A stretch of 64,000 nucleotides of DNA from an uncultured Gemmatimonadales bacterium (GCA_963728915.1 CAVSLV010000002.1:33457-97456); one strand, 5' to 3'. Positions 2,386 to 33,209 are shown, numbered from the stretch's first letter. The notes: generated by a model not told the origin, from the letters alone. Numbers and translations: made by a program.

Positions 2386-2751
2386 ATGCCGAAGATCCTG
2401 CTGGTCGAGGACAATGAAATGAACCGCGATATGCTCTCCCGCCGGCTCCAGCGGAAAGGGTTCGAAGTGGAGATGGCGGTTGACGGCAAACAGGGCGTGG
2501 ACATGGCGCTCAACGGATCCTACGACTTGATCCTGATGGACATGAGCCTGCCCGAGATCGACGGCTGGGAGGCGACCCGCCGGGTCCGGGAGGCGCCGCA
2601 GACCCGAACCATCCCGATCATTGCGCTCACCGCGCACGCGATGTCCGGCGACCGCGAAAAAGCGATGGCGGCGGGCTGCAACGACTACGACACCAAGCCG
2701 GTGGAGCTCGAGCGACTCCTCGGCAAGATCGCCGCGTTGCTTCCCGCATGA
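2386..2751 (+). CDS. Single-domain response regulator (CheY-like receiver)
   Basis: KILLVEDNEMNRDML...LILMDMSLPEIDGWE...TAHAMSGD...YDTKP. Starts 3 nt after the kinase stop. Confidence 0.9.
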   Translation: MPKILLVEDNEMNRDMLSRRLQRKGFEVEMAVDGKQGVDMALNGSYDLILMDMSLPEIDGWEATRRVREAPQTRTIPIIALTAHAMSGDREKAMAAGCNDYDTKPVELERLLGKIAALLPA

Positions 2752-16728: not shown

Positions 16729-17577
16729 ATGATTGCAACCCGTCATACCCTTTTCGCCCTGGTCGCGGTAGCGGCCACGACGCCCATCGTCGGGCACGCC
16801 CAGCGCGGCGCGGACAGTGTCCGCCGCCGGGTGACCGTGTTCCGGGGCGATTCCCTCCCCTGGAAGTCCCTGTTCACCGAACGCCGGGCCCGGCTCGGCG
16901 TCACCGTGGACCTCCAGTCGTCCGATTCGACCGGGGCCCTGATCGAAGCGGTGACCCCGGGCGGCCCCGCGGCCAAAGCCGGGATCAAGAGCGGCGACAT
17001 CATAACCCGCATCGACGGGAAATCGCTGGCCGGCGCCGATGCCGGCGGGCGGCTGGTCGAGATTTCCTCCCAGCTCAAGCCGGACCAGACGGTCAGTCTG
17101 GAGTATCTCCGCGACAAGGCCCGCCGGACCGCTTCGCTCACCACCGGCGACGAGCCGATCATGGTGTTCGAGGGTCCCTCCGGACAGATGCGGTTCCAGG
17201 CCCCCGACGTGGAAATGCAGCGGTTTCCCGGCGGGTTCGCCTTCGGGACCGGCCCCGGCAACTTCATGTTCGAGATGGGTCACGGCCTGATGGATCTGCA
17301 GCTGGCTCCCCTGAACCCCGAGCTGGGATCCTACTTTGGCACCAGTGACGGCGTGCTGGTGATCGATGTGCCCCGCGAGTCCACCCTGGGGCTCAAACCG
17401 GGAGACGTGGTCCAGGCCATCGATGGCCGGAAAGTGAGCGCGGTCTCCAGCTTCTTCCGGATCCTCCGGAGCTACGATCCCGGCGACAGCTTCAAGCTCG
17501 ACATCATGCGCAACAAGAGCCGCATGACGGTGAACGGGAAGCTGGACAACCCCCGCGACCGGGACCGCGATCGATAA
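16729..17577 (+). CDS. Secreted protein with two PDZ domains
   Basis: AAAGGAG Shine-Dalgarno about 10 nt upstream. Signal peptide present. PDZ motifs GALIEAVTPGGPAAKAGIKSGDIITRIDG and GVLVIDVPRESTLGLKPGDVVQAIDG. Confidence 0.75.
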   Translation: MIATRHTLFALVAVAATTPIVGHAQRGADSVRRRVTVFRGDSLPWKSLFTERRARLGVTVDLQSSDSTGALIEAVTPGGPAAKAGIKSGDIITRIDGKSLAGADAGGRLVEISSQLKPDQTVSLEYLRDKARRTASLTTGDEPIMVFEGPSGQMRFQAPDVEMQRFPGGFAFGTGPGNFMFEMGHGLMDLQLAPLNPELGSYFGTSDGVLVIDVPRESTLGLKPGDVVQAIDGRKVSAVSSFFRILRSYDPGDSFKLDIMRNKSRMTVNGKLDNPRDRDRDR

Positions 17578-17597
17578 CCCGGCACATCGCAACCAAG

Positions 17598-17634
17598 GCG
17601 AGGGTGGGCCAGAACGGCCACCCTCGCTTTTTTT
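17598..17634 (+). terminator. Rho-independent terminator
   Basis: The stem is GCGAGGGTGG...CCACCCTCGC and is followed by TTTTTTT, about 20 nt after the PDZ gene stop. Confidence 0.75.
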
Positions 17635-17640
17635 GTATCC

Positions 17641-18477
17641 GTGATCGTCCATCTCATCGACGGGACCTACGAGCTGTTCCGCCAGTTCTACGGCCGGCGT
17701 CGCGGCAACGAGGGCCGGGACCAGCCCTTTGGCGCCGTCCAGGGCGTGCTCCACTCGATCCTGCACCAGATCGAGCAGGGTGCGACCCATCTTGGCGTCG
17801 CCACCGACCACGTCATCGAATCCTTCCGCAACGACCTCTGGCCGGGATACAAGACCGGGGAAGGCATCGAGCCCGCCCTCTGGCGCCAGTTCCCCGAGCT
17901 GGAAACCGCGCTCGCCGGGATGGGAATCGTGGTCTGGCCCATGATCGAGCTCGAAGCCGATGACGCCCTCGCCTCCGCGGCGCGGCTCGCCCAGGTGGAC
18001 CCACGGGTCGACCAGGTATGCATCTGGGCCAACGACAAGGACCTGGGCCAGTGCGTCCGGGGCACCCGGGTGGTCCAGATGATCCGGCGCAACAACGAAA
18101 TCAGGGATGAAAGCGGGGTGGAGAAGAAATTCGGCGTCGGACCCCCGTTGATCCCCGATTACCTGGCCCTGGTCGGTGACGCCCAGGATGGATACCCCGG
18201 CATCCCCGGGATCGGCCCCGCGACCGCGGCGCGGCTTCTCAACCGCCACGGGCCGATCGAGCAGTTCCCGTCCGACGTGTTAGGAGAAAGGCTCGAGTCC
18301 GCCCTCCTCTTCAAACGGCTCGCCACCTTGCGCACCGATGCCGCCCTCTTTGCCGACGTCGATCAGCTCGCCTGGGGCGGTCCTGCACCGTCGTTCCCCG
18401 CCCTCGCCGAACACATGGGAGATCCCCGACTGGCAATACGTTCCGCCGCCGCGGCAGCCGGCCGCGTCGCGTCCTGA
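17641..18477 (+). CDS. 5'-3' exonuclease / flap endonuclease (Xni/ExoIX-like)
   Basis: The GTG start is followed by IVHLIDGTYELFR. Acidic metal-site motifs ATDH, ELEADD and NDKDLGQ are present. An H3TH region follows (GDAQDGYPGIPGIGPATAARLL). Confidence 0.8.
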   Translation: MIVHLIDGTYELFRQFYGRRRGNEGRDQPFGAVQGVLHSILHQIEQGATHLGVATDHVIESFRNDLWPGYKTGEGIEPALWRQFPELETALAGMGIVVWPMIELEADDALASAARLAQVDPRVDQVCIWANDKDLGQCVRGTRVVQMIRRNNEIRDESGVEKKFGVGPPLIPDYLALVGDAQDGYPGIPGIGPATAARLLNRHGPIEQFPSDVLGERLESALLFKRLATLRTDAALFADVDQLAWGGPAPSFPALAEHMGDPRLAIRSAAAAAGRVAS

Positions 18478-18521
18478 ACCACATCGCGCGGACCGGCGGC
18501 GGGGGTTATAGTAGTGTTGCC

Positions 18522-20384
18522 ATGACACCGACCGACGGGGCGGAATTGTTCCGAGGCCAGGCAGATGGCTCCGCCCGCGTGGTCCCCGATTCTCCCCCCC
18601 TGCCCCCCGAGGAGTCGGAGAGCCTCGATGTCTGGGGTTTTCGCGGCGCCGGCTTCGAGCTGCTCCAGAACGGCAGCGTGATCCTCCGGGGCGACCGATA
18701 CGCCGGAAGCGGTGTCGAGCTGCCCGACCTGCTGCCGTGGGTCAAGAGGATCCTCGGGTGCGACATCCAGCCCGGCGACATTCATCGATCGCAATACCCT
18801 CCCGAGATTCCCGAGCCGCGCCTCCCTCCCGTTCTGCTCCGGGAGATCGGTGAGATTCTTCCCGAATCCGCCATCTCGACCGATCCCGAGCAAAGGCTCC
18901 GCCGGGGTCACGGGCATACCCTGGAAGAGATGTGGGCGATCAAGTACGGGAGAATCGAGCGGGTGCCCGACGTGGTGGTGTTCCCCGAAACCGACCAGCA
19001 GGTGAGCGCGCTGGTGCAGGCGGCGCTGCGTCATGACGCGTGCCTGGTTCCCTACGGCGGCGGCACCAACGTGACCGATGCCTTGCGCTGCCCCCCGGAC
19101 GAAGATCGCACCATCCTCGCGGTGGACCTGGCGCGGATGAACCGGATTCGCTGGATCGATCCGGTCAACCGCATGGCGTGCATCGAGGCCGGCGCGGTGG
19201 GCCGCCATATCCAGACCGGTTTGGCCGCGATGGGATTCACCCTCGGGCACGAGCCCGACAGCGTCGAGTTCTCGACTCTGGGCGGCTGGATCGCCACCTA
19301 CGCCAGCGGGATGAAGAAGAATCGCTACGGCAACATCGAGGACCTGGTGCTCGACGTGGAGGTGGTCACCCCGCTTGGCGAGCTCCGCCACGCGCCGTTT
19401 CCCCGGGAGTCGGCCGGGCTCGACCCGCGGCGCTGGATCTTCGGCTCGGAGGGCTCGCTCGGGATCGTCACCAGCGCGGTGGTCAAGATCTTTCCCCTGC
19501 CCGAGGTGCAGCGCTACGACGCGCTGCTCTTTCCCGACTTCGAAACCGGGGTGCGTTTTCTCTATGACCTGACCCGCGAAGCCGTCCCCCCCGCGAGCGT
19601 TCGGCTGGTCGACAACCTGCAGTTCCAGCTGAGTCAGACGCTCAAGCCCAGAGCGGAAGGTGCCGGGGCCCTGAAACGCAAGATCGAGAAATTCCTGGTG
19701 ACCCGCCTCAAGGGATTCGAGCCGGAGAGCATGGTCGCGTGCACCCTGGTGTACGAGGGAACCAGTCGCGAGGTCGCTTCGCAGGAAGGGTCGGTCGCGA
19801 GTCTGATGCGGCGTCACCGGGGCATGCGGGCCGGCGCCGAGAACGGGCGCCGGGGCTATCAGCTCACCTTCGGCATCGCCTATCTCCGCGACTTCGTGAT
19901 GCGGCACTGGGTCCTGGGCGAGTCGTTCGAGACGGCGGTCCCGTGGAGCCGGGTACTCTCACTCTGCGACAACGTGAAGCAGCGACTCCATGCCGAGTGC
20001 GCCGCGCGTGGAGTTCCTGGACGGCCATTCGTCACCGCGCGGGTGACTCAGCTCTACCAGACCGGGGTCTGTGTGTATTTCTATTTCGGGTTCTACCACA
20101 AAGGCCTGGCCGATCCGCTGGCCACCTACCTGGATCTCGAACGGGCCGGGCGCGAAGAAATTCTCTCTTCGGGAGGCTCGATCTCCCATCATCACGGCGT
20201 TGGCAAGATCCGACGGGGATTTCTGACCAGGATATTCTCGCCGGCGGTGCTCGAATGGAGCGGCGAGATCAAGCGGGCCGTCGATCCCAACAATGTGTTC
20301 GGAATCGGCAACCTCACCGGGGGTCAGGCCGGGGTCAGAGCAGGGTCAGACCCCGGCCTGACCCCGCTCCAGGTGAAGGCATGA
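18522..20384 (+). CDS. Alkyl-dihydroxyacetonephosphate synthase (AGPS-like FAD-linked oxidase)
   Basis: The AGPS-type N-terminus is WGF..AGF...G.V.L.G.RY...G..LP.LLPW. An FAD_binding_4 core is present. The HHH loop SISHHHGVGKIR is characteristic of AGPS. Confidence 0.85.
   Translation: MTPTDGAELFRGQADGSARVVPDSPPLPPEESESLDVWGFRGAGFELLQNGSVILRGDRYAGSGVELPDLLPWVKRILGCDIQPGDIHRSQYPPEIPEPRLPPVLLREIGEILPESAISTDPEQRLRRGHGHTLEEMWAIKYGRIERVPDVVVFPETDQQVSALVQAALRHDACLVPYGGGTNVTDALRCPPDEDRTILAVDLARMNRIRWIDPVNRMACIEAGAVGRHIQTGLAAMGFTLGHEPDSVEFSTLGGWIATYASGMKKNRYGNIEDLVLDVEVVTPLGELRHAPFPRESAGLDPRRWIFGSEGSLGIVTSAVVKIFPLPEVQRYDALLFPDFETGVRFLYDLTREAVPPASVRLVDNLQFQLSQTLKPRAEGAGALKRKIEKFLVTRLKGFEPESMVACTLVYEGTSREVASQEGSVASLMRRHRGMRAGAENGRRGYQLTFGIAYLRDFVMRHWVLGESFETAVPWSRVLSLCDNVKQRLHAECAARGVPGRPFVTARVTQLYQTGVCVYFYFGFYHKGLADPLATYLDLERAGREEILSSGGSISHHHGVGKIRRGFLTRIFSPAVLEWSGEIKRAVDPNNVFGIGNLTGGQAGVRAGSDPGLTPLQVKA
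20320..20365 (+). promoter_or_regulatory. Perfect 17-bp stem hairpin inside the last codons of the AGPS gene, 15 nt before the next start codon
   Basis: GGGGTCAGGCCGGGGTC (20320-20336) pairs with GACCCCGGCCTGACCCC (20349-20365) across a 12-nt loop. It contains three tandem GGGTCAG units. Confidence 0.7.
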
Positions 20385-22693
20385 GCGCCCCGCGCGAGTT
20401 TTTACTCACCGGGGTCACCGGATTCCTGGGCAAGGTCGTCCTGGAAGAGCTGGTGCGCCGGCGCGAAGAGCTGGGCGTCGAGCGAGTCCACGTCATCATC
20501 CGCCCTCGCAAGGGCCTGACGCCGGAAGAGCGGTTCACGCAGGAAGTCGCCGCTTCCGGGTGTTTTGCCGGGCTCCCACCCGGCTGGGCCGATGCCATCT
20601 CGATCGTCGAGGGTACCCTCGAGAAACCCTGTCTCGGCATCTCCCCGGAAGCGCGGGAGAGACTGGGCACCCGGGTAACCCACATCCTGCACGCTGCCGC
20701 CTCGGTGAGCTTCGACCTTCCCCTCAATGAAGCCGCCCGGTCCAACGTGGATACCACCGTGCACCTGCTGGAGCTGGCCCGCGCCTGTCGCCGGCTGCAA
20801 CGTCTGGTGTACGTCTCAACCGCGTACGTCACCCCGCATCCCGGCAACGGAACACCCATCCCCGAGGCACTCGCCCCGCTCCCCTGGGCGCCCGAAGAGC
20901 TGTATCGCATGATCCAGCAGGGCGACGCGGACGAGAAGGCGTTGCTCAAGGAATCGCGGCACCCCAATACCTACACTCTCACCAAGTGCCTCGCCGAGCA
21001 TCTGCTGGTGGCCCGCCGTGGGGAGGTCCCTCTCTCCATCGTGCGTCCCAGCATCATCTCGGCGAGCTGGAAACATCCCTTTCCGGGGTGGATCGACAGC
21101 ATGGCGGGGTTCGGCGGCTTCGTCGTGTTGATCGGGTTAGGCCACCTGCGGGTCGTGGCCGCGAACCCGTCGGCCCGGATTGACGTGGTCCCCGTGGATA
21201 TGGTGGCCAACCGGATGCTCGACGAATGTGAGCATCCCTCGACCGAACCCGCGCCGGTCATTCGTCACGCGGTGTCCGGGCTGGCCAGCACCCCGCGGGT
21301 GCTCGACTGCTGGGACCGAATCCAGGAGTTTTTCCTGGTCCATCGGGTGGACCGGCGGCCGGTGATCCGGTACGTCGGGCCTCGGGGAGTCCGGTTCGCC
21401 ATCGCCGAGAGCCTGCACCATCGTTTGGCGGTCCGGCTCGCCGGGATCCGCTCGGCCGCTCTGCGTCGCTCCGGGGCCCAGTTGCTCTCCCGGCTCATCT
21501 ATCTGAACCGGGCGTTCCCCTACTTCACCTCGAATTCGTTCGACTTCCGGAGCAGCCACGCCCCGGAGCCGGGGTTCGAGCCGGGCGAATACGTCACCAC
21601 CGTGTGCCGCGGCATCTACCGCCACATGCTCGACCGGGACGAGACCGAGTGGACCCTGGCCGGACGCAAGCAGCGCGGGTTAGGCGAGAGCGACTTCCAC
21701 TGGGCCTTTACCCAGCCGGCCGGGAACCTCTGGATCCGGACCGCCGCCTGGATCACCACCAAGATGCTCCGCCGCGCGGCCGAGCGGATCACCGTGGACA
21801 TCCCGTCCTTCCAGGCGGCCCGCCGCGCCGCGGCTGCCGGGGAGCCCATCGCCCTGGTGCCCAACCACCGGAGCTATCTGGATTTCGTCCTCTGCTCCTA
21901 TCTGTGTTTCGCCCGCCCCGATCTCGGGATCGGGATTCCCTACATCGCGGCGGCGATCGAGTTCGGCCGGATTCCGTTCCTCGGCAGGATCCTGACCTGG
22001 CTCCATGCGTTCTATGTCCGCCGGGGAACCGGTCCTGATCCTGACCTGACCCGCCGGGTCCATGACCTGGTGAGCCAGGGCAAGACCCTCGAGTTCTTCG
22101 TGGAGGGACAGCGGAGTCGTTCCCGCGAGTTCCTCCCGCCCAAGCGGGGCCTCCTCCGTGTGCTTCAGGCCACGGGACAGCCGTTCACTCTGCTGCCGGT
22201 GGCGTTCACCTACGACCGGGTTCCCGAAGAGCAAAGCTTCGCGAAGGAGCTGGCTGGAGCGCCCAAGCCGAAGATGCGGCTCGGTGGACTGCTTCGCTGG
22301 ACATGGCGGGCCTGGCGCGGCAAGGTGCACCTGGGCCGGATCCACATCGCGTGTGGCACGCCGGTCCGACTCCAACAGAGCAGCGACGTCCAGATGGTCG
22401 CCGACGAAGTCATTCAACGACTCGAGGAGGCGACCGTCGCGACCACCTATCACCTGGAAGCGTTTCTGGCCCGGTATGCCCTCGACGGTCTCGACTCCCA
22501 TGCCCTCAAGCGGGAGATCGAGCTGCGGGGTGGTCGGGTGCTGGAGAGTCCGCTTCGCCCCGAGACCGGCCTCGATGCCAGGATCGCGCACAGCTTCCGC
22601 TACCAGTTCCAGCACTATTTCCGCACTGGAAACGACGAAGTTCCCTTCGACCGGATTCTTTCCGACATTCGAGAGCGCGAGCCGGTCGGGTGA
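20381..22693 (+). CDS. Bifunctional fatty acyl-CoA/ACP reductase (FAR) plus DHAP/glycerol-phosphate acyltransferase (GNPAT/PlsB-like) fusion
   Basis: ATGA overlap with the AGPS gene. The N-terminal half has LLTGVTGFLGKVVLEEL and NTYTLTKCLAEH, the male-sterility/FAR NAD-binding domain. The C-terminal half has VPNHRSYLDFVLCSY (H-x4-D) and FFVEGQRSRSREFLPPKRGLL. Confidence 0.85.
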   Translation: MSAPREFLLTGVTGFLGKVVLEELVRRREELGVERVHVIIRPRKGLTPEERFTQEVAASGCFAGLPPGWADAISIVEGTLEKPCLGISPEARERLGTRVTHILHAAASVSFDLPLNEAARSNVDTTVHLLELARACRRLQRLVYVSTAYVTPHPGNGTPIPEALAPLPWAPEELYRMIQQGDADEKALLKESRHPNTYTLTKCLAEHLLVARRGEVPLSIVRPSIISASWKHPFPGWIDSMAGFGGFVVLIGLGHLRVVAANPSARIDVVPVDMVANRMLDECEHPSTEPAPVIRHAVSGLASTPRVLDCWDRIQEFFLVHRVDRRPVIRYVGPRGVRFAIAESLHHRLAVRLAGIRSAALRRSGAQLLSRLIYLNRAFPYFTSNSFDFRSSHAPEPGFEPGEYVTTVCRGIYRHMLDRDETEWTLAGRKQRGLGESDFHWAFTQPAGNLWIRTAAWITTKMLRRAAERITVDIPSFQAARRAAAAGEPIALVPNHRSYLDFVLCSYLCFARPDLGIGIPYIAAAIEFGRIPFLGRILTWLHAFYVRRGTGPDPDLTRRVHDLVSQGKTLEFFVEGQRSRSREFLPPKRGLLRVLQATGQPFTLLPVAFTYDRVPEEQSFAKELAGAPKPKMRLGGLLRWTWRAWRGKVHLGRIHIACGTPVRLQQSSDVQMVADEVIQRLEEATVATTYHLEAFLARYALDGLDSHALKREIELRGGRVLESPLRPETGLDARIAHSFRYQFQHYFRTGNDEVPFDRILSDIREREPVG

Positions 22694-23700
22694 GCACCGG
22701 GCCAGCCTGGCTGGTGACCGGGGCCACCGGCTTTCTCGGCCGCCATGTCCTGACGCACCTCGCGGGAGAGTCCGACCCACCTCGGGTGCTCGCCCTGATC
22801 CGGGATCGCAGCGAGTGGAGCAGGCTCGCCTGGGCCCGCGATCTCGCCTTTGTGACTCCGCTCGAGGGCGACATCACCGATCCGGCGCTGATCGATCGGA
22901 TCGGGCCGGATGTGACGCCGCTTGCCGGCATCCTTCACCTCGCTGCCCTGGTATGTCACCGCCCGAGCGAGGCGGACCGGGTCCTGCGTGTCAACGTGGA
23001 CGGTACTGCCAACCTGGTCCGCCTCGCCGCCGCGCATCGCTGTCGCATGGTGTTTGTCTCGACCTCCGGCACCGTGGGTTGTTTCCGCGAACCGAACCGT
23101 TCGGCCGATGAGGACTCGCCGTATTGTTACGCGGAAGTACGCGGCTGGCCCTACTACCGCTCAAAAATTCTCGCCGAGGAGCGGGCCCGCGCGCTCGCGG
23201 CCGAGCTCGGTGTCGATCTGGTCATCGCGCGTCCGCCGATCCTGCTTGGCCCGGACGATCACCGGCATCGATCCACCAACCACGTGCGGCGGCTCCTCGA
23301 GGGCAAGGTGCCGGTGGTGGTCCGCGGCGGGATGCACTTCGCCGACGTGCGCGACGTTGCGAGCGCCCTGACCCGGATCATGTCCCGGCCAACCACGCGG
23401 CCGGTGTATCATCTTCCCGGGATTCAGTGCTCGATCCAGGCCTTCTACGACGACATTGCCCGGCGTTCGGGCGCGCGTCCGCCGCGAGGCGTTGTGCCGT
23501 ACCGCCTCGCGTGGACCGCCTCGAAGCTGTTCAGGATCCTGGGACTCTCGGTCCTTCCCGAGCCGGCCCTGGTGGAGATGGCGGCGCACTACTGGGGGAT
23601 TCACTCGAAATACGCCGAAGCGGACCTCGGGTACCGGACCCGTCCGGGAGAACAAACCCTGCAAGACACCATCGACTGGCTTCGCCGGGAGGCCCAATGA
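22690..23700 (+). CDS. NAD(P)-dependent epimerase/dehydratase-family SDR (candidate acyl/alkyl-DHAP reductase)
   Basis: GTGA overlap with the upstream gene. Motifs LVTGATGFLGRHV and YYRSKILAE (YxxxK). Confidence 0.8.
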   Translation: MSTGPAWLVTGATGFLGRHVLTHLAGESDPPRVLALIRDRSEWSRLAWARDLAFVTPLEGDITDPALIDRIGPDVTPLAGILHLAALVCHRPSEADRVLRVNVDGTANLVRLAAAHRCRMVFVSTSGTVGCFREPNRSADEDSPYCYAEVRGWPYYRSKILAEERARALAAELGVDLVIARPPILLGPDDHRHRSTNHVRRLLEGKVPVVVRGGMHFADVRDVASALTRIMSRPTTRPVYHLPGIQCSIQAFYDDIARRSGARPPRGVVPYRLAWTASKLFRILGLSVLPEPALVEMAAHYWGIHSKYAEADLGYRTRPGEQTLQDTIDWLRREAQ

Positions 23701-24656
23701 CCGCACCACCACGCAGGATGGCGACGCTCTTGATGCTCGTCGCGGCGGTGCCCCTCGGCGCCCAGAGTCTTCCCACCTACAGCCCGCTCAATCCCATGGC
23801 CCAGATGCGATCGGGCCTGACCACCCTGCCCTGGTTCGGGGATGGCCGGACCTGGCATGCCTCCGCCACGCTCGACTACGGCAACGCGATCGAATACTCC
23901 ACTGGACAGGACCTGACCTACATCCTCGATGCCGAGCTTCTCAATGCCCGCTTCCTGGTGTCCCGCAGCATCGGGCGCCGTGGCTTCGTGCTCGGTGAGG
24001 GGAGCGTGCACGGCTCCTACGACGGCTTCCTCGACGGGTTCCTCGACTGGTATCACAATCTGACCGGACTCCACGTCGCGGCGCGGTCGCTTCGGCCCCG
24101 CAATGAATTCGATTACGAGCTGACCATCCAGGATGACGAGTTCCGATACCAGCCCACCAGCTACCTCGGGGACGTCCGGCTTGGTGGGGGGCTTCAGTTC
24201 GGGAAGGGGTGGCAGACCGGGTTATGGGTGACCTTGCCGACCAGCGGTGCCTCGAATGGGTACCGGATGGGGACCGCATCCGTGAACGGCAACCTGATGC
24301 TGCATCGGGACTTTGGGCCGACTGGACGGTTCACCTACGAAGGGAGCATCGGAGTTGGGGTGACGCCACGCCATGGCGAGCTCGAACGATGGCAGCGCAC
24401 CGTCTTCTTCATGGTGACGCAGGGGGCCCGGGTCAGGGTGGCGGGGCCGTTCCACGTGTACGCCAACCTGTTCTACGATTCACCCTACTATCGAAACACC
24501 ATGACCCCGGAGCTCGACCGGAAGGAGCTCACCCTCGACGCAGGGCTGCTGTTTCGGTTCCGCCACGGACCAGCGTGGCTCCTGAGCATGACCCAGGATC
24601 TCTCGCCCAGCGGCCCGGCGATCGACGTGGCGTTCAGGCTGGGGGTGTACTGGTAG
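23697..24656 (+). CDS. Putative outer-membrane beta-barrel protein of unknown function
   Basis: ATGA overlap with the SDR gene. Signal peptide LLMLVAAVPLGAQS. Alternating-hydrophobic strands and a C-terminal aromatic end FRLGVYW. Confidence 0.6.
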   Translation: MTAPPRRMATLLMLVAAVPLGAQSLPTYSPLNPMAQMRSGLTTLPWFGDGRTWHASATLDYGNAIEYSTGQDLTYILDAELLNARFLVSRSIGRRGFVLGEGSVHGSYDGFLDGFLDWYHNLTGLHVAARSLRPRNEFDYELTIQDDEFRYQPTSYLGDVRLGGGLQFGKGWQTGLWVTLPTSGASNGYRMGTASVNGNLMLHRDFGPTGRFTYEGSIGVGVTPRHGELERWQRTVFFMVTQGARVRVAGPFHVYANLFYDSPYYRNTMTPELDRKELTLDAGLLFRFRHGPAWLLSMTQDLSPSGPAIDVAFRLGVYW

Positions 24657-24876
24657 CCAGAAACTGCTCCATGTGCTGAAGCAGAAAGGTCCGCGCCTCG
24701 GGTTCCCGCACGTTCAATCCATAGTGGTTGATGAGCTGTTGCTGAAACTTGAGCCACTCGGCCCAGCACACCGCGCAAATCTCCTGGAAGAGTCGCTGGC
24801 CCATCGGGGTCGGAAAGGGAGGGAAGGACTGCTGATCGCGGGTCTGACCGCAGCGCACACACGTGATGTCGGGCAT
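24634..24876 (-). CDS. YggX-like Fe(2+)-trafficking / oxidative damage protection protein
   Basis: An 80-aa protein. Its C..C, CAVCWAEWLKFQQQLINHYGLN and FL pattern matches the YggX family. Confidence 0.8.
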   Translation of the reverse strand: MPDITCVRCGQTRDQQSFPPFPTPMGQRLFQEICAVCWAEWLKFQQQLINHYGLNVREPEARTFLLQHMEQFLATSTPPA

Positions 24877-25677: not shown

Positions 25678-27201
25678 TTGCGCCCCATGAACCTCAAGCG
25701 CGTCAAACCGATCTGGGCCGTATCGGCCATGGCCGTCCTGATGGCCTGGCCTGCGATATACAACGGATTTCCGCTCTTGTATCCGGATTCCATGTCCTAC
25801 CTGGAAGCGGGTCCCCTGGTGGTTCGCGGATTGTTCCACCATGTGTTTCCACTCCAGTATTCCGTCCGCGGGGTTCTCTATTGTCTGGCGATCTGGCCAT
25901 TGCATTGGAACATTACAGCCTGGCCTGTGGTCGCCGCCAACGCATGCCTGACCGCCTTGGTCCTGTGGCTGCTGGTGCGCGCCCTGGTGCCGCGGCGAAG
26001 TACCGAGGCATATCTGGCCGTGGGTATCGGGTTGTGTCTGTTCACGGGCCTGGGCTGGTACGTCGGCTTTGTGATGCCGGACATTCTCGGCCCGGTGCTT
26101 TACATCTGTTTTTTTCTGTTGTCGTTCATGCCGCAGACCCTGTCGCGAATCGAGCGCTGGACGATCGTGCTGATCGCATGGTGGTCCATCACAGCCCACG
26201 CGTCACACCTGCTCCTGGCGGGCGGATTGTGTCTGGTGATCCCGGTACTTCTGGGACTGCAGCACCGGGGCGCGCGCCGTTCACTCGGCGCAGCGGCATT
26301 GCTCTGCACTATCACGGGGCTCGCGGCGCTGGCTCAAATGGGGATGCACGCACGTTTGTACGGCCAGGCGTCGCTCAACGGCAAGCGACCCCCATTTCTG
26401 CTGGCGCGCGTGATCGCCGATGGCCCCGGCCGCACCTACCTCCAGCAGTATTGCCGCAAGAATCCAGCGCCGGATCTCTATATGTGCCGGTTTGTGGACA
26501 AGCTGCCCGACAATGCCGCCGACTTCCTCTGGGCGCCCGAGGGGATCCGGTCAAGCGCCACCGCAGAGCAGCGAGACGAACTGCGAAAGGAAGAACTGCC
26601 CCTGGTGCTCGGAACGCTCAGAACCTACCCGATGGAGGAATTGCGCATCTCGGCCGGCCACTTCTGGCGACAGCTCAATGCATTTGGCCTCTTCAATTAT
26701 TCGCCCAATCCGTGGATTCGGGAGATGTTCGCCACGATTATGCCCGGTGCCCGGGCAAACTATTTGAAGAGCCGCCAGGTCAGGGAGTCCCTCCACGTGG
26801 CATTCTTTACCAGGCTGCAGAAATGGACCGTGGGCATCTCGCTGGTGGTGTTGGCGATGACGCTGCTCGTGGGGCGCCGGATGTGGACCAGGGAACTGGC
26901 GGGACTTTTGGGAGTGATCACTTTTGTGATCGTGGCGAACGCCGCGGTGACGGGCATTCTGTCGAACGTCGAAGACCGGTATCAGGGGCGGGTAATCTGG
27001 ATGATTCCGCTCTTGGCGGGGTTGGCGGTCGCGGCGTGGCTGAGACGGGGGGACGGCCACCCTGTTGCTGGGAGCCCGGTCCCTCCTACCGTCCGGGAGC
27101 ACCCGGGTAGCGAGACGCCCTCAGGCTACCAGCGGAGCAGGCAGCTCCCCCAGACGAACCCGGAGCCGAAGGCGGTGAACCCCACCAGGTCTCCGGGGTG
27201 A
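25678..27201 (+). CDS. Polytopic integral membrane protein of unknown function (GT-C-like topology is speculative)
   Basis: A 507-aa ORF with about 10 hydrophobic segments, a large soluble loop and LLYPDSMSYLE in the first loop. Its codon usage is visibly more AT-rich than its neighbours. Confidence 0.65.
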   Translation: MRPMNLKRVKPIWAVSAMAVLMAWPAIYNGFPLLYPDSMSYLEAGPLVVRGLFHHVFPLQYSVRGVLYCLAIWPLHWNITAWPVVAANACLTALVLWLLVRALVPRRSTEAYLAVGIGLCLFTGLGWYVGFVMPDILGPVLYICFFLLSFMPQTLSRIERWTIVLIAWWSITAHASHLLLAGGLCLVIPVLLGLQHRGARRSLGAAALLCTITGLAALAQMGMHARLYGQASLNGKRPPFLLARVIADGPGRTYLQQYCRKNPAPDLYMCRFVDKLPDNAADFLWAPEGIRSSATAEQRDELRKEELPLVLGTLRTYPMEELRISAGHFWRQLNAFGLFNYSPNPWIREMFATIMPGARANYLKSRQVRESLHVAFFTRLQKWTVGISLVVLAMTLLVGRRMWTRELAGLLGVITFVIVANAAVTGILSNVEDRYQGRVIWMIPLLAGLAVAAWLRRGDGHPVAGSPVPPTVREHPGSETPSGYQRSRQLPQTNPEPKAVNPTRSPG

Positions 27202-28121
27202 AGGCGGCCGGCCCGGACGCACTCGTCGAGCGCCACCGGAATGGTCGCGGCGGTGGTGTTCCCATATCGCTGGATGTTGTTGTACACCTGATCGTCCCGC
27301 AGACCCAGCTCCTTCTGCACCGACTCGGAAATCCGCAGGTTGGCCTGGTGGGGAATCAGCAGCGCCAGGTCGGCGGGCGCCAGGCCGGTGCGGGTTAGGA
27401 CGGCGCGGACCGACTCCGGCATCCGCACCACCGCGTGCCGGAAAACCTCCCGACCGTCCATCCGGAGCCAGTACTTCCCTTCCGCCTCCTCCCTGGCCCA
27501 CTGGTCGGGGGGGACCAGCGCTCCCGGTCCCTCGACCCAGAGCTTCTCGGCGTACTGTCCGTCGGTGTGAAGATCGAAGCCCAGGATGCCCCGTCCGGGC
27601 TCGTCGGTCGGGCCCAGCACGACCGCGCCCGCACCGTCGGCAAAGATCACCGCGGTATGGCGGCCCTCGGTCGAGAGATCCATCCGGGTGGACTGGATTT
27701 CCTGGCCCACCACGAGGACGCGCTGGAACATCCCGGTCCGGATGTAGGCATCGCCCAGGGACAGCGCGAAGACGAAGCCGGCGCATTGCATCCGGAGATC
27801 GATGGCCGGGATGGTGGTGGTGATCCCCAGCTCGCGCTGGAGGTACACTCCGTTGCCCGGGGTGAATCGATCGGGCGTGCTGGTGGCGTAGATGATGGCA
27901 TCGAGATCCCCCGGGGCAAGAGCCGCGGCGGCCAGCGCTTCGAGCGCGGCGCCCCGGCCCAGTCCGACTCCGGTTTCGCCCGGGGTGATCCAGTGTCGCT
28001 CCTGGATCCCGGTGCGGGTCCGGATCCATTCGTCGGAGGTATCCATGAGCCGGGACAGCTCGTCATTGGTGACGACCCGGTCGGGGAGGGCCTTGCCGGT
28101 CCCGAGGATGATGGAGCGCAT
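27126..28121 (-). CDS. fabH: 3-oxoacyl-[ACP] synthase III
   Basis: Active-site motifs MQCAGFVFAL (Cys), IPHQANLRI (His) and YGNTTAATIP (Asn). Confidence 0.92.
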   Translation of the reverse strand: MRSIILGTGKALPDRVVTNDELSRLMDTSDEWIRTRTGIQERHWITPGETGVGLGRGAALEALAAAALAPGDLDAIIYATSTPDRFTPGNGVYLQRELGITTTIPAIDLRMQCAGFVFALSLGDAYIRTGMFQRVLVVGQEIQSTRMDLSTEGRHTAVIFADGAGAVVLGPTDEPGRGILGFDLHTDGQYAEKLWVEGPGALVPPDQWAREEAEGKYWLRMDGREVFRHAVVRMPESVRAVLTRTGLAPADLALLIPHQANLRISESVQKELGLRDDQVYNNIQRYGNTTAATIPVALDECVRAGRLHPGDLVGFTAFGSGFVWGSCLLRW

Positions 28122-28248: not shown

Positions 28249-29463
28249 CTATTCATACCTCAACGCATCAATCGTATTCAGGTTCGCTGCCCGCCAGGCG
28301 GGCCACAGCCCGAAGAAGAGACCTACCAGCGCGCTGAACGCGAAGGCGAGCCCCACCGATTCGGGCGCGATGTAGGTGTTCCACTTGGCAAAGTGAGACA
28401 TCAGCATGGCCCCGCCGGTGCCGGCCATGACGCCCAGCATGCCGCCGAACAGACACAGCACCAGGGCTTCGATCAGGAACTGGAGCAGCACGTTGGTTTT
28501 CGTGGCGCCCAGCGCCTTGCGGATCCCGATTTCCCGGGTCCGTTCGGTGACCGAGACCAGCATGATATTCATGATCCCGATCCCGCCGACGATCAGCGAG
28601 ACGAAGGCAATGCCGCCCAGAAGCAGCTTGAAGGTCTGGGTGGTTTCCTGCTGGGTCGCCAGAATGTCCTGTTGATTCCGGATTTGAAAGTCGTTGTCGC
28701 CACCGGGCCTGATCTTGTGCTCCCGGCGCAGCACCCGCTCGATGTCCACCATGCCCTGCTCGAGACTGAACTGGTCCTTGACCACCACGGCCACCGAGCG
28801 CAGCCGGTCGGTGCCGAACATCCGGTACTGCGCGGTCTTGAGGGGGATCAGGACCTGCTCGTCGAGGTTCATGAACGAGCCCTGGGAGCCTTTCTCGCTC
28901 AGGACTCCGATAACCTCGAACGGCTGCCCCCGGACCTGGATCATCTGGTGGATCATTGCCGCGGGATTCACGTTGAACATGGTGGGGACCGCCGCGCCGA
29001 GCACCGCATAGCGCTGCCGCGAGGCATCGTCGCCCGCGGTGAACATCCGGCCGAACGGCACCGTGTAATTCCGCACGTCGGTGTAGTTCGCCGTGGTGCC
29101 GATGATATTGATGTTGAAGTTCCGGTTCCCGTACTTCACCTGGAGCGAGCGCTGGAGCTCCGGCTCGACCGCCGCCAGCATGGTCGCGTCGCTGGTGAGC
29201 GCTTCGGCGTCCTTGACCGTGAGGCTGACCCGCACGTCACTGGCCCGGCCCATCGAGAACGACTGACCCGGGTTGATGGTGAGCAGCCGGGCACCGAGCG
29301 CCTGGATCCGCTCCTCCACCGCGCGCTGGGCGCCGGTGCCGAGCGCGACGACCGCGATGACCGCGCCCACCCCGATGATGATGCCGAGCATGGTGAGAAG
29401 CGCGCGGAGCTTGTGTTCCCGGATGCTGGAGAACGCCACCCGGACCGTTTCGCCGATCATCAT
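28249..29463 (-). CDS. ABC transporter permease, MacB/FtsX family
   Basis: A MacB_PCD-like periplasmic domain lies between TM1 and TM2. The C-terminal FtsX region is REIGIRKALGATKTNVLLQFL. Confidence 0.88.
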   Translation of the reverse strand: MMIGETVRVAFSSIREHKLRALLTMLGIIIGVGAVIAVVALGTGAQRAVEERIQALGARLLTINPGQSFSMGRASDVRVSLTVKDAEALTSDATMLAAVEPELQRSLQVKYGNRNFNINIIGTTANYTDVRNYTVPFGRMFTAGDDASRQRYAVLGAAVPTMFNVNPAAMIHQMIQVRGQPFEVIGVLSEKGSQGSFMNLDEQVLIPLKTAQYRMFGTDRLRSVAVVVKDQFSLEQGMVDIERVLRREHKIRPGGDNDFQIRNQQDILATQQETTQTFKLLLGGIAFVSLIVGGIGIMNIMLVSVTERTREIGIRKALGATKTNVLLQFLIEALVLCLFGGMLGVMAGTGGAMLMSHFAKWNTYIAPESVGLAFAFSALVGLFFGLWPAWRAANLNTIDALRYE

Positions 29464-29476
29464 GGCGTGATCCTCC

Positions 29477-31087
29477 TCACGGCCTCCCGGCTCCGCCGCC
29501 GGTACCGCTGGTCGGGGGCCGCGCGGTGCCCGTGGTGGTGGCGCTGCCCTGTGACATGCCGGGCACCGCGCCGCCCCCGGTCATCCGCTGGAACCGCTCC
29601 TTGGCGTCCTGCTGCGACTGCACCAGGCTCGCACTCGGGAGGACCAGCACGGAATCGCTCTCGGAGAGTCCGCTCACGATTTCGCTGTAGTCGAGATCGG
29701 TGAGCCCGCTCCGGACGTAGCGCGGGGTCGGCTCGCCTCCCTTCCCCGGCAGGAACACGATGTAATCGCCGCCGAACTGGAATTCGTTGCCCTGGCGCCG
29801 GCCACCGAATCCGCCACTCTGCCCACCGAACCCTCGACCTCCGCCGGCGCCGCCGTTTCCGCCTCCCATGGCGCCGGTCGCGCGGAGCTTGGTCATCACT
29901 TCCTGATCGGCAGAGGTGAGCTGTTCCTGGCTCCGGAACTTCGCAAACACCGCTTCGACCTGTTTGGCAGTCACTCCCTCGGGGAGCTGGATCTCACGCC
30001 CGTTCGGCATGGTGTAGACATTGCCCGCGGGCTTGGGCGCGGGCGCTGCCGCAGAATCCTTCTTCGCAGAGTCTCCGGTCGCGGCGGCCACCCGGCTCCG
30101 CACGGAATCCCGCACCTGCTGGGCCTGGGCCAGGAGGGTCTGAAGCCGGTCGGCGGGAATCCCGAGCACCTGCGCCGCGCTCGCCACGTCGCGGGTGGTC
30201 CGCAGCGCCGCGTTCGGCACTGCGAGCACATTCTCCCGCCGCCCGATGTGAATCTCCACGTCGGCGTTCATCCCCGGCTTGAGCAGTCCGTTCTGGTTCT
30301 GGATCCGGATCAGCACCGGGAACATGGTGACGTTCTGCGACGTCTCCGCCTGCGGCTCGACCTTGAGGACCTCACCCTGGAACGGCTGGTTGGGATAGGC
30401 GTTGACGGTCACGGTGGTGCGAAGCCCGGGGCTGATCTTCCCGATATCGGTTTCGTCCACCAGGGTCCGGACCTGAACCAGATTGAGGTCGGCCATCTTG
30501 AGCAGCACGGTGCCGCCGCCGACGTCCGAGGTCGGCGAAGAGATGACCTGACCGCGCTCGACGCTCTTCAGAATGACCGTGCCGCTGATCGGGGCGCGCA
30601 CTTCGGTGTCTTCCATCGCGATCTTGGCATTCTCGACCGCGACGTCCGCCGCCACCACCGCGGCCTTGGCGTTGGCAACCGCGAGCACCGCATTCTCGTG
30701 CTCTTCCTGCGAAATGGACTGGGACTTGAAGAGCTCGTCGGCGCGGGCCCGCTGCGCTTCCGCGTTGATCAGGCGGGCCTTGGCCACATCGAGGTCGGCC
30801 TGGGTCTGGTTGAGCCGGTTGCGGGGCGTGCGCTGATCCACCCGAACCAGCAGCGTCCCCCGCTCGACGTTCTGCCCGGTTTCGGCCCGCATGTCGAGGA
30901 TTTCGCCCGAGGCCTTGGACTTCACCTCCACGACCGTGTCGGGCTGGATCACGCCGGTGGCCCGGGCCGACACCACGATGGTGCGACGCTCGACCGGCAC
31001 CGCCTGGTAGAGCACCGGCTTGGGTTTCTCCTTGCAGCCGATTGCCGCCAGGCCAAGCAGGACAGGAACCAATCTGGACTTCCGCAT
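29477..31087 (-). CDS. Efflux periplasmic adaptor (HlyD/MacA family) with Gly-rich C-terminal extension
   Basis: Lipobox GLAAIGC. Contains a biotinyl-lipoyl-like domain, a coiled-coil hairpin and a beta-barrel (VRAPISGTVI). Ends in low-complexity GGGNGGAGGGRGFGGQSGGFGG. Confidence 0.85.
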   Translation of the reverse strand: MRKSRLVPVLLGLAAIGCKEKPKPVLYQAVPVERRTIVVSARATGVIQPDTVVEVKSKASGEILDMRAETGQNVERGTLLVRVDQRTPRNRLNQTQADLDVAKARLINAEAQRARADELFKSQSISQEEHENAVLAVANAKAAVVAADVAVENAKIAMEDTEVRAPISGTVILKSVERGQVISSPTSDVGGGTVLLKMADLNLVQVRTLVDETDIGKISPGLRTTVTVNAYPNQPFQGEVLKVEPQAETSQNVTMFPVLIRIQNQNGLLKPGMNADVEIHIGRRENVLAVPNAALRTTRDVASAAQVLGIPADRLQTLLAQAQQVRDSVRSRVAAATGDSAKKDSAAAPAPKPAGNVYTMPNGREIQLPEGVTAKQVEAVFAKFRSQEQLTSADQEVMTKLRATGAMGGGNGGAGGGRGFGGQSGGFGGRRQGNEFQFGGDYIVFLPGKGGEPTPRYVRSGLTDLDYSEIVSGLSESDSVLVLPSASLVQSQQDAKERFQRMTGGGAVPGMSQGSATTTGTARPPTSGTGGGAGRP

Positions 31088-31839
31088 CAGGACCCTCGTG
31101 GAGTGGTGACGTCGCGCTCGACCATCCCGTCCCGCAGGTGGACCTGACGGTGGGCGTGCGCCGCGATGTCGTGTTCGTGAGTGACGAGGATGATGGTCTG
31201 CCCTTCCTGGTGCAGCTGGTCGAACAGGGCCAGGATCTCCTCGCTGGTTTTCGAATCGAGATTGCCGGTGGGCTCGTCGGCCAGAATGATGCTGGGGTGA
31301 TTCACCAGCGCCCGCGCGATCGCCACGCGCTGCCGCTGCCCGCCGGAGAGCTCGTTGGGCCGGTGGGTCATCCGGTCGCCGAGGCCGACCCGCTGCAGCG
31401 CCTCACTGGCGGCTTTGCGCCGGTCCTTGGAACCGACTCCTCCATAGATCATCGGCAGCTCCACGTTCTGGAGCGCGGTGGCCCGGGGCAGCAGGTTGAA
31501 GGTCTGGAAGACGAACCCGATTTCCTTGTTCCGGATCCGGGCCAGCTCGTCGTCGCCCAGCTCGGAGACCCGGTGCCCGTTGAGCCAGTATTCGCCTTCG
31601 GTGGGCGAATCGAGGCAGCCGATCAGGTTCATCAGGGTGGACTTGCCCGACCCCGAGGGACCCATGATCGCCATATACTCGTTCCGCCGGATGGTGAGAT
31701 CCACCCCCCGCAGAGCCCGAACGATTTCGGCGCCCATCTGGTATTCCCGTTTCATGTTCCGCACGACGATCACGGCATCGCGGGGCACATCCGAGGGGAG
31801 CATGGCCATGCGTTCAGCGGTGTTGGATACCGCGGTCAT
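31087..31839 (-). CDS. ABC transporter ATP-binding protein (MacB/LolD-type)
   Basis: Walker [10 protein letters not shown], signature LSGGQRQR, Walker [12 protein letters not shown] and H-loop VTHE. Confidence 0.92.
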
Positions 31840-33209
31840 AGCGGCCTCCCGATGAGGGCGGAAAGTTGGGCGCGGGCGCGGATATAGTCGAACCGGGCGG
31901 TGACCGCGTCCACTTCGGCCTGGTTCAGCGCTTCCTGCGAGGTCAGCACATCAACAATGGTCGAGGCGCCGAGCCGGAAACGTTCCTGCTGGACCCGGAG
32001 ATCCTCACCGGCGGCCTGCACGCTGGTCTGGGTGATCCCGAGCCGGAGCCGGGCCGCCTCGAGCGACGCCAGGGCCGACGTCACACTGGCGAGGACCTGG
32101 CGGCGGGCTTCCGCGGCGTTGGCGTCGGCCAGCTCCGCACTCGACACCGCGGTCGCGATCGATTGCTCCCGCTGAAACCGGTTGAAGATCGGCCAGCTGA
32201 GCTGAAGATTGAACTGGCGCTGCTGAAGGAAGTTGTAGTCGTTCTGCCGGCTTCCGTTCAGGGAGATCTGGGTCGAAAGGCTGAGGGTCGGAAAGTACGC
32301 CGCCTTGGCGACGCCGACCGAAGCGCGGGACGACATCGCCGAGGCTTCCGCGGCAATCACCGACGGCGCTTTCGCGAGGGCTTCGCTCCGAATGGCGTTG
32401 GTGTCGACGGTGCTCATGATCTGATAGAGCGCGGTGTCGTCCACCGCGCCGACCGGACCATCGGCGCCGACCAGGCGTCCCAGGTTGGCCTGAGCCACCT
32501 CGAGGCTGGTCTGCGCCTGGAGCAGCTGCAGCCGTGCGTTCCCCAGGGTCACCAGCGAACGAAGCGAATCGGAGCGAATGCCCCGGCCGGCATGGAGCAG
32601 CGACACCGACACGTTGAGCTGTTCCACGGCGCGCCGCACGCTGGCCTGGCGCACCGTGAGAAGCTGCTCCGCGGCCAGCACGTCGAAGTAGGTATTCGTC
32701 GTGGTGAGCTGCTGGTTGAACTGCGCGTTCACCAGCCCGGCCTCGGCGGCGTTCTCATTGGCATTCGCCGCCTTCCGCTCACTGGTGCGGCGGAATCCGG
32801 CGAACAGATCGATGCTCGAGCTGACGCTGCTGTTGACACTTCGATTGGTGCTGCCGCTGGTGACGATCTGTCCGGTGCTGGGATCGACCCGGGCTCCTTC
32901 GGAATAGAAATCGCCAATCGACCCGTTCAGGTTGAAGGTCGGGAGAAAGGCGCCCAGCGAGGACCGTTTGCGAGCTGCGGCGTTGCGCACCGAGCCGAGC
33001 GCGGAGACCACACTCGGTTGCACCTGGTTGGCCCGCGCGATCGCTTCGGCGAGGGTCATCCGGGGGACATCCAGGCCGGGCGCCCTGCGCATCGTGTCCA
33101 CGACTTGCGCGGCCGCCGATCCGGTCACTCCGACCAGGCCGAGGGCGAACAACAGGAGGGCCGCGTTACGGCCGGGACGGCGGGGCATTCCGATTCCTTT
33201 CCGGTCCAT
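31836..33209 (-). CDS. TolC-family outer membrane efflux protein
   Basis: Signal peptide present. Two internally repeated OEP halves with long helical segments. ATGA overlap with the ATPase gene. The start may be the internal ATG at 33188. Confidence 0.88.

Follow-up and report, generated by a model that had tools for sequence, protein, structure and literature searches.

A probable Gemmatimonadales orthologue of the Myxococcus xanthus MXAN_1676-1674 cassette for the AGPS route to 1-O-alkyl glycerolipid precursors

Does a bacterium of the Gemmatimonadales encode the peroxisome-type route to ether lipids and, if so, is its gene set a new one? The question is raised by four consecutive + strand genes (18522-24656) in a DNA stretch of 64,000 nucleotides from an uncultured Gemmatimonadales bacterium (GCA_963728915.1 CAVSLV010000002.1:33457-97456), here called the window. 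A reading of this sequence, made from the sequence only, had seen in them a complete, aerobic four-gene operon for ether-lipid synthesis, of a composition not known to be described. Our analysis makes it likely that genes 1-3 (18522-23700) are the Gemmatimonadales orthologue of MXAN_1676-MXAN_1675-MXAN_1674 of Myxococcus xanthus, a cassette for the alkyl-dihydroxyacetone phosphate synthase (AGPS) route to 1-O-alkyl glycerolipid precursors. This conclusion is drawn from homology and domain architecture, from catalytic residues that are kept, and from a synteny that is very tight. The operon is of a known type, and the copy lies in a phylum for which no paper on the pathway was found.

Genes 1-3 and the M. 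xanthus operon

The four open reading frames (ORFs) were confirmed where the sequence-only reading had placed them, with a 4-nt stop/start overlap at each junction: ATGA at 20381 between genes 1 and 2, GTGA at 22690 between genes 2 and 3, and ATGA at 23697 between genes 3 and 4. Bacterial operons show this class of overlap more often than any other, and alone it is unremarkable. The G+C content of third positions is 0.77-0.93 in precisely the four gene frames and the frame switches at every junction; all four genes are therefore taken as coding. The G+C content is 65-70% across the whole window, and the locus lies in it without compositional break. All the motifs quoted earlier for genes 1-3 are present, and the profile searches then proposed returned FAD_binding_4 and FAD-oxidase_C for gene 1, NAD_binding_4 and Acyltransferase for gene 2, Epimerase for gene 3 and a weak DUF3187 match for gene 4.

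Gene 1 (18522-20384, + strand) encodes a predicted alkyl-dihydroxyacetone phosphate (alkylglycerone-phosphate) synthase of 620 residues. It contains WGF...GDRY...LPDLLPW near the N-terminus and SISHHHGVGKIR at residues 553-564, and matches FAD_binding_4 (PF01565, E = 1.8e-34, residues 149-290) and FAD-oxidase_C (PF02913, E = 3.2e-37, residues 326-594). In a phmmer search, guinea-pig AGPS (4bby) matched residues 19-598 with E = 1.4e-161 and 542 bits, at 42.6% identity over 578 aligned residues, and Dictyostelium AGPS scored 289 bits. Outside AGPS, the highest-scoring relative was a D-lactate dehydrogenase (D-LDH), with 89.5 bits over the FAD domain only, and the NCBIfam GlcD model gave 147 bits against a cutoff of 568. 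The AGPS alignment starts at gene 1 residue 19 (chain residue 75) and spans the WGF...RY...LP N-terminal domain, whereas the GlcD/D-LDH paralogues align only from about residue 147. Residues T309, R419, Y578 and H615-H617 of the guinea-pig enzyme are all conserved, as T252, R361, Y519 and H556-H558; we take Tyr578, the HHH loop (His615-617) and Arg419 to have catalytic roles in AGPS, which were reportedly described by Nenci et al. in 2012 and Razeto et al. in 2007. GlcD and D-LDH were thus rejected as identities of gene 1 by the score margin, the AGPS N-terminal domain and the catalytic residues, and on scores the protein does not group with them. Gene 1 is strongly supported as an AGPS, as had been suggested, and in this organism it would catalyze the AGPS exchange reaction.

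Gene 2 (20381-22693, + strand, 770 residues) appears to join an N-terminal fatty acyl-CoA reductase (FAR) to a C-terminal acyltransferase of the GNPAT/PlsB type, the architecture that is called FARAT. NAD_binding_4 (PF07993) matches residues 9-279 over the full profile (E = 2.1e-63) and Acyltransferase (PF01553) residues 485-609 (E = 4.2e-19), together with a weak GPAT_C match; the Pfam search gave no AMP-binding or PP-binding match for this protein. The FAR half contains GVTGFLGK at residues 11-18 (TGxxGxxG) and Y198/K202 (YxxxK), and the acyltransferase half contains H496-x4-D501 and FFVEGQRSRSR at residues 572-582 (FxxEGxRS, F572-S579). Across 12 homologues, no variation was seen in the residues of the nucleotide-binding motif or of YxxxK, H(x)4D and FxxEGxRS. 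Among PDB structures, gene 2 matches the fatty acyl-CoA reductase 7eoz and the glycerol-3-phosphate acyltransferase (GPAT) chains 9vuq and 8e4y, the latter two at E = 1.8e-18 and 3.9e-14. The NCBIfam PlsB model scores 117 bits, far under its cutoff, and the sequence places the acyltransferase in the PlsB/GPAT1/GNPAT superfamily as a whole. The fusion of a FAR with a GNPAT-type acyltransferase, also recognized in the earlier reading, is strongly supported by these domain and structure matches.

The closest organism-labelled relatives of gene 2 are proteins from Gemmatimonadales metagenome-assembled genomes (MAGs), and the best unlabelled match is 87% identical. A further relative, P0016 (987 residues, 89% identical to gene 2), combines FAD-oxidase_C, FAR and acyltransferase domains. 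It may stem from a true fusion of AGPS with FARAT, from a frameshift or from a gene call that was extended too far, as in the 984-residue ORF seen at 19739-22693.

Gene 3 (22690-23700, + strand, 336 residues) is predicted to be an extended short-chain dehydrogenase/reductase (SDR) of the NAD-dependent epimerase/dehydratase family, with GATGFLG at residues 11-17 and Y155-x3-K159. Its main Pfam match is Epimerase (PF01370, E = 4.5e-32), followed by 3Beta_HSD and by NAD_binding_4 with 69 bits. The best NCBIfam match is HpnA-like (141 bits, under cutoff), and the thioester-reductase domain TIGR01746 scores 90 bits, also under cutoff. Its PDB neighbours are keto- and acyl-CoA reductases, namely DFR, cinnamoyl-CoA reductases (CCR) and ketoreductases. 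From its family and its place behind the FARAT gene, it is the predicted positional orthologue of MXAN_1674.

The same three proteins, in the same order and on a single strand, form the M. xanthus operon, in which MXAN_1676 is the AGPS, MXAN_1675 the fusion of FAR with a GNPAT-like acyltransferase and MXAN_1674 a member of the NAD-dependent epimerase/dehydratase family (PMC9131029, PMC13012113). Curtis et al. 2006 were the first to point out the AGPS similarity in this operon (PMC9131029, PMC13012113), MXAN_1676 is ~42% identical to human AGPS (PMC9131029), close to the 42.6% between gene 1 and the guinea-pig enzyme, and a PNAS 2026 article draws the operon and names its fusion protein FARAT (PMC13012113). 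Since AGPS-FARAT-SDR is already published as MXAN_1676-1675-1674, the claim that this operon composition is undescribed does not hold. The two copies differ in their hosts, Myxococcota in one case and relatives labelled Gemmatimonadales in the other, and in their layout, the window genes overlapping by 4 nt and being followed by a co-directional DUF3187 gene. The M. xanthus operon is backed by genetics (deletion of MXAN_1676), whereas the window copy is known from its sequence alone.

Distribution of the cassette and the variable slot

A pattern scan with one genome per GTDB species returned 315 genomes with a relative of gene 2, and the best 80 loci were examined; below they carry L numbers. 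By record title, 46 of these 80 loci belong to Gemmatimonadota, 18 to Myxococcota or 'delta', seven to Gammaproteobacteria/Woeseiaceae, two to Spirochaetales, one to Thermoleophilia and one to Sericytochromatia, while five have no taxon label; the loci were ranked by similarity to the Gemmatimonadales query and MAG labels can be wrong, so these counts are not true proportions. The cassette is common outside Myxococcota, with 315 species-representative genomes and many Gemmatimonadota labels among the best 80 loci. A GTDB-wide search had reported the individual pathway genes in several bacterial phyla, and the same study notes that AGPS carries little phylogenetic signal (PMC13012113).

The AGPS gene lies directly upstream of the FARAT gene, on the same strand, in all 69 loci whose upstream sequence reaches far enough. 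FARAT is followed directly by the SDR gene in 46 of 71 loci, and four further loci carry this gene at another place. In Cystobacter sp. (L077, Myxococcota), the gene order is that of M. xanthus and the proteins are 55, 45 and 46% identical to those of window genes 1-3. Other arrangements were also observed: the SDR gene is found ~2.5-3 kb upstream of AGPS and not downstream of FARAT in L068, L071, L073 and L074, and it is replaced after FARAT by a DegT/DnrJ/EryC1-type aminotransferase gene in L033, L044, L047 and L076 (10130-11359 in L033). The survey of operon conservation thus bears out the three-gene core, invariably for AGPS-FARAT and in a majority of loci for the SDR, while the membership of the fourth gene fails.

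Gene 4 (23697-24656, + strand, 319 residues) encodes a predicted DUF3187 outer-membrane beta-barrel, with a signal-peptide-like N-terminus and a C-terminal YW. DUF3187 (PF11383) matches it with E = 1.6e-4 and 21.4 bits, under the gathering cutoff of 24, and PF11383 is carried by most of the homologues listed for it (down to 45% identity), some of which NCBI names DUF3187. AlphaFold models it with confidence as a barrel (pLDDT 85.7), in line with the earlier description as an outer-membrane barrel. The best fold matches are the 12-stranded barrels of FapF and of the COG4313 channel (4rl8), with a TM-score of ~0.55; the likeness to DUF3187, FapF and COG4313 barrels lies in the signal peptide, the C-terminal aromatic residue and the barrel model, and the fold match is generic.

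Among the 80 loci, a DUF3187 gene adjoins the cassette only in L001, L003, L005 and L014, and in none of the other loci with downstream room; L081, reached by contig look-up, shows it as well. L081-L084 came from a look-up of contigs on which less closely related DUF3187 proteins are encoded, and the comparison disclosed a fixed backbone of one Gemmatimonadales lineage, made of genes for an ECF (extracytoplasmic function) sigma factor, a probable anti-sigma factor and a PDZ protein, then a variable slot, then DUF3187, YggX (-), FabH (-) and a MacB/HlyD/ABC/OEP efflux operon (-). The slot, which in the window is the interval 17577-23700 from the PDZ gene to DUF3187 with no flanking repeats seen, holds AGPS-FARAT-SDR in the window and in L001, L003, L004, L005, L014 and L081. 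In L082 and L083 it is taken by one TetR gene, and in L084 by genes for a sensor kinase, a response regulator, a thioesterase and others. The DUF3187 gene starts within a few bases of whatever gene precedes it. Because DUF3187 stands at the same backbone position where the cassette is lacking (L082-L084), the conserved functional unit is three genes, and gene 4 as a conserved operon member was rejected on the 80-locus synteny and these cassette-free loci. Gene 4 is, judging from this comparison, a resident backbone gene outside the conserved cassette. It is probably co-transcribed with the cassette here, and only because the cassette fills the variable slot immediately 5' of the resident DUF3187 gene, and the comparison of slots shows how a neighbour gene can mimic an operon member.

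Predicted pathway and competing explanations

In the proposed pathway, the FAR half of gene 2 would make a fatty alcohol by reducing a long-chain acyl thioester, and the acyltransferase half would convert dihydroxyacetone phosphate (DHAP) to 1-acyl-DHAP. The flavoenzyme encoded by gene 1 would then swap the acyl group for the fatty alcohol to give 1-O-alkyl-DHAP, and the SDR encoded by gene 3 would probably reduce the C2 keto group, producing 1-O-alkyl-sn-glycerol-3-phosphate, which could then enter ordinary phospholipid synthesis. For this organism, all of these activities are inferred, and most of all the reduction assigned to gene 3. A Gemmatimonadaceae variant of the locus (L068, L071, L072, L074 and L080) carries a gene for a CDP-alcohol phosphatidyltransferase immediately upstream of AGPS (~5420-6136 in L068), and this neighbour supports a phospholipid fate of the product.

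The route had been called aerobic, which is a misnomer. Molecular oxygen is needed only by PEDS1/CarF and by none of the reactions assigned to genes 1-3. Among the ~50 window ORFs scanned, none is PEDS1/CarF, elb, PlsA/PlsR/Ger or another ether-lipid gene, and the only other lipid gene is FabH (27126-28121); the expected products are therefore alkyl and not alkenyl lipids.

Compared with the eukaryotic peroxisomal pathway (FAR1, GNPAT, AGPS and DHRS7B/PexRAP), the window system shares a clear AGPS homologue with its catalytic residues kept but is without an organelle or a peroxisomal targeting signal, its candidate reductase is an extended SDR and no PEDS1 was found. The fusion of FAR and GNPAT-type domains in gene 2 also occurs in the protist FARAT of Tetrahymena, which is experimentally bifunctional (PMC13012113, citing its ref. 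26); bacterial FARAT is related to GNPAT, and eukaryotic FARAT is placed beside Myxococcia sequences (PMC13012113). In the myxobacterial elbA-E cluster, ElbD likewise has FAR-like and AGPAT-like domains and ElbA and ElbE are epimerase-family SDRs, but ElbD adds acyl-CoA synthetase and acyl carrier protein domains, both lacking in gene 2, and the cluster, which contains no AGPS, is a separate route. In comparison with M. xanthus, neither an elb cluster nor carF/PEDS1 was found in the window. The anaerobic plasmalogen synthase PlsA/PlsR and the glycerol ester reductase Ger reach the same end result, bacterial glycerolipids with an ether link at sn-1, but they are unrelated enzymes that reduce an existing ester bond, and they have no homologue among the scanned ORFs.

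Several observations weigh against the pathway proposed here. Our literature search, limited to one searchable library, found no paper tying Gemmatimonadota to AGPS or ether lipids, and in M. xanthus itself the disruption of MXAN_1676 by Lorenzen et al. 2014 caused a minor loss of ether lipids, with ElbD as the main route (PMC9131029, PMC13012113), so that AGPS is a minor contributor there and ElbD the dominant one (PMC9131029). The sequence of the gene 2 acyltransferase does not separate DHAP from glycerol-3-phosphate specificity, and DHAP is the presumed substrate. The cassette could make no ether lipids here and supply fatty alcohols or wax esters, or an acyl-DHAP route to diacyl phospholipids, the AGPS homologue having another flavoenzyme activity; some organisms do have the enzymes yet no detectable ether lipids (PMC13012113). 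We consider this very improbable, since every AGPS catalytic residue that was checked is kept in gene 1, as is the N-terminal domain specific to AGPS, and since the invariant AGPS-FARAT adjacency (69/69) would be difficult to account for if AGPS did not use both products of FARAT. The position of gene 3 in the pathway is more exposed. By its domain matches it falls outside the classical-SDR family of DHRS7B/PexRAP and Ayr1 (EC 1.1.1.101) and is, on that ground, unrelated to the known eukaryotic alkyl-DHAP reductases; DHRS7B and Ayr1 are classical SDRs. Its database neighbours mix acyl-CoA/thioester reductases with ketoreductases, and the SDR is not in the immediate neighbourhood in about one third of the loci and may therefore not be obligatory. 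Gene 3 could instead complete the reduction of a fatty aldehyde made by the FAR, as its NAD_binding_4 and TIGR01746 scores and the cinnamoyl-CoA reductases among its structural neighbours would allow, or it could modify a head group or a sugar, an unlinked enzyme then reducing the ketone; the related ElbA of M. xanthus is reported to be dispensable for ether lipids (PMC9131029). This is unlikely, although it has more in its favour than the loss of ether lipids altogether, because the SDR is the sole other conserved partner of AGPS-FARAT across phyla and because ketone reduction is the one unassigned step of the pathway and a reaction typical of DFR/3-beta-HSD-like extended SDRs. Moreover, alcohol-forming FARs of the NAD_binding_4 type normally perform both reductions themselves. 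We know of no MXAN_1674-type SDR for which an orthologue has been assayed. From synteny and context we infer that gene 3 is a 1-alkyl-DHAP reductase; the earlier assignment as an extended SDR is confirmed, and its further identification as the missing acyl/alkyl-DHAP reductase is drawn from context.

The last observation of this kind concerns gene 4. The 4-nt ATGA overlap between the SDR and DUF3187 genes and a good Shine-Dalgarno sequence (GGGAGG) 7 nt 5' of the gene 4 ATG indicate that here the cassette and gene 4 are expressed together. A dedicated four-gene system, in which the barrel would be a functional partner such as a channel for uptake or export of fatty alcohols or ether lipids, would account for this and for the SDR-DUF3187 adjacency in L001, L003, L005, L014 and L081, and the fold matches of gene 4 include the COG4313 channel and, at lower TM, the FadL/TodX channels for hydrophobic substrates. 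The cassette-free loci make it improbable: there, DUF3187 lies just before YggX/FabH/MacB and follows a TetR or DUF5655 gene as tightly as it follows the SDR gene in the window. The DUF3187 proteins are also about as similar to gene 4 in loci with the cassette (49-60% identity) as in loci without it (46-51%), and the TM-score of gene 4 to any solved barrel remains low.

The preferred explanation is thus a three-gene AGPS-FARAT-SDR cassette beside a resident barrel gene. A wider proposal, on which we are tentative and lean slightly to the doubtful side, is that Gemmatimonadota are widespread, unrecognised producers of non-isoprenoid 1-O-alkyl glycerolipids via an oxygen-independent AGPS-FARAT-SDR cassette that moves between genomes, the extended SDR being a non-orthologous replacement of the eukaryotic alkyl-DHAP reductase. 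If true, it would provide a new source organism for environmental monoalkyl glycerol ethers and assign a function to MXAN_1674-type SDRs. Gemmatimonadota are a major phylum of soils and sediments, and the cassette bears on the origin of bacterial alkyl glycerol ether biomarkers. The tight synteny across phyla is the best available argument for an MXAN_1674-type SDR as bacterial alkyl-DHAP reductase.

Transcription unit and other features of the window

Upstream of the cassette, a stem-loop followed by a T7 run (17590-17641, + strand, inverted repeat I23) lies 3' of the PDZ-protein gene and folds with -31.9 kcal/mol (z = -4.0). It is a probable intrinsic terminator, and the arrangement GAGGGCGGCC...GGCCGCCCTC plus a T-run also occurs upstream of the AGPS gene in L001, L003, L004 and L081; it probably marks the upstream boundary of the locus. 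A -10-like box, TATAGT, is found at 18507-18512 on the + strand, 9 nt before the AGPS ATG. It belongs to the motif GTTATAGTAG, which is kept upstream of AGPS in the window (18497-18521), L001, L003, L004 and L081, with near-matches in L002 and L006, and which in the window, L004 and L081 is separated from an ATG by 8-9 nt. A scan for consensus sigma-70 -35/-10 elements gave no promoter in the AGPS upstream region, and the box came from the comparison of relatives; it is probably the own promoter of the cassette, a function deduced from its conservation. The ATG follows TATAGT by 9 nt and no Shine-Dalgarno sequence is present there in the window, which suggests a leaderless or near-leaderless mRNA.

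At the other end, a convergent gene for a YggX-type Fe(2+)-trafficking protein (24634-24876, - strand; Iron_traffic PF04362, E = 3e-20) runs into the 3' end of gene 4. L001, L003, L005, L014 and L081-L084 carry this gene at the corresponding position, and it marks the downstream end of the transcription unit. The genes of the cassette appear, from these sequence features, to be read as one stop/start-overlapped unit with its own conserved -10-like promoter.

Within the last codons of the AGPS gene lies a near-perfect palindrome (20320-20365, + strand, inverted repeat I8) with 20 bp of stem and 95% complementarity. Its extended stem (-55.5 kcal/mol, z = -4.55) pairs with GGTGAAGG, a Shine-Dalgarno-like sequence before the gene 2 ATG. 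This hairpin was considered as a conserved regulatory element and rejected, being absent from 12 relatives and unique within the window. The C-terminal tail of AGPS at the palindrome differs from that of the relatives, and the palindrome may therefore be a small insertion. Flanking repeats were also considered as signs of a mobile element, and between ~17300 and 25000 only short repeats at chance level were present.

Between the terminator of the PDZ gene and the cassette promoter, the window carries a stand-alone gene for a 5'-3' exonuclease resembling the N-terminal part of DNA polymerase I (17641-18477; PF02739 and PF01367), which has no counterpart at that position in the related loci. Further downstream, an ORF of 507 residues (25678-27201), for which Pfam gave no match, encodes a predicted membrane protein that is hydrophobic and crosses the membrane several times. 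The relatives, syntenic in other respects, lack this ORF, which at its 3' end shares ~75 nt with the convergent FabH gene. The MacB-type tripartite efflux operon (28249-33209, - strand), with genes for an FtsX/MacB permease, an HlyD-type adaptor, an ABC ATPase and an OEP outer-membrane factor, is kept together with FabH downstream of the locus in all the backbone relatives. Near the start of the window, a single predicted protein (2748-4670) combines HisKA, receiver and Ser/Thr protein kinase domains, and its gene follows those of a GAF-PAS hybrid histidine kinase and a single-domain response regulator.

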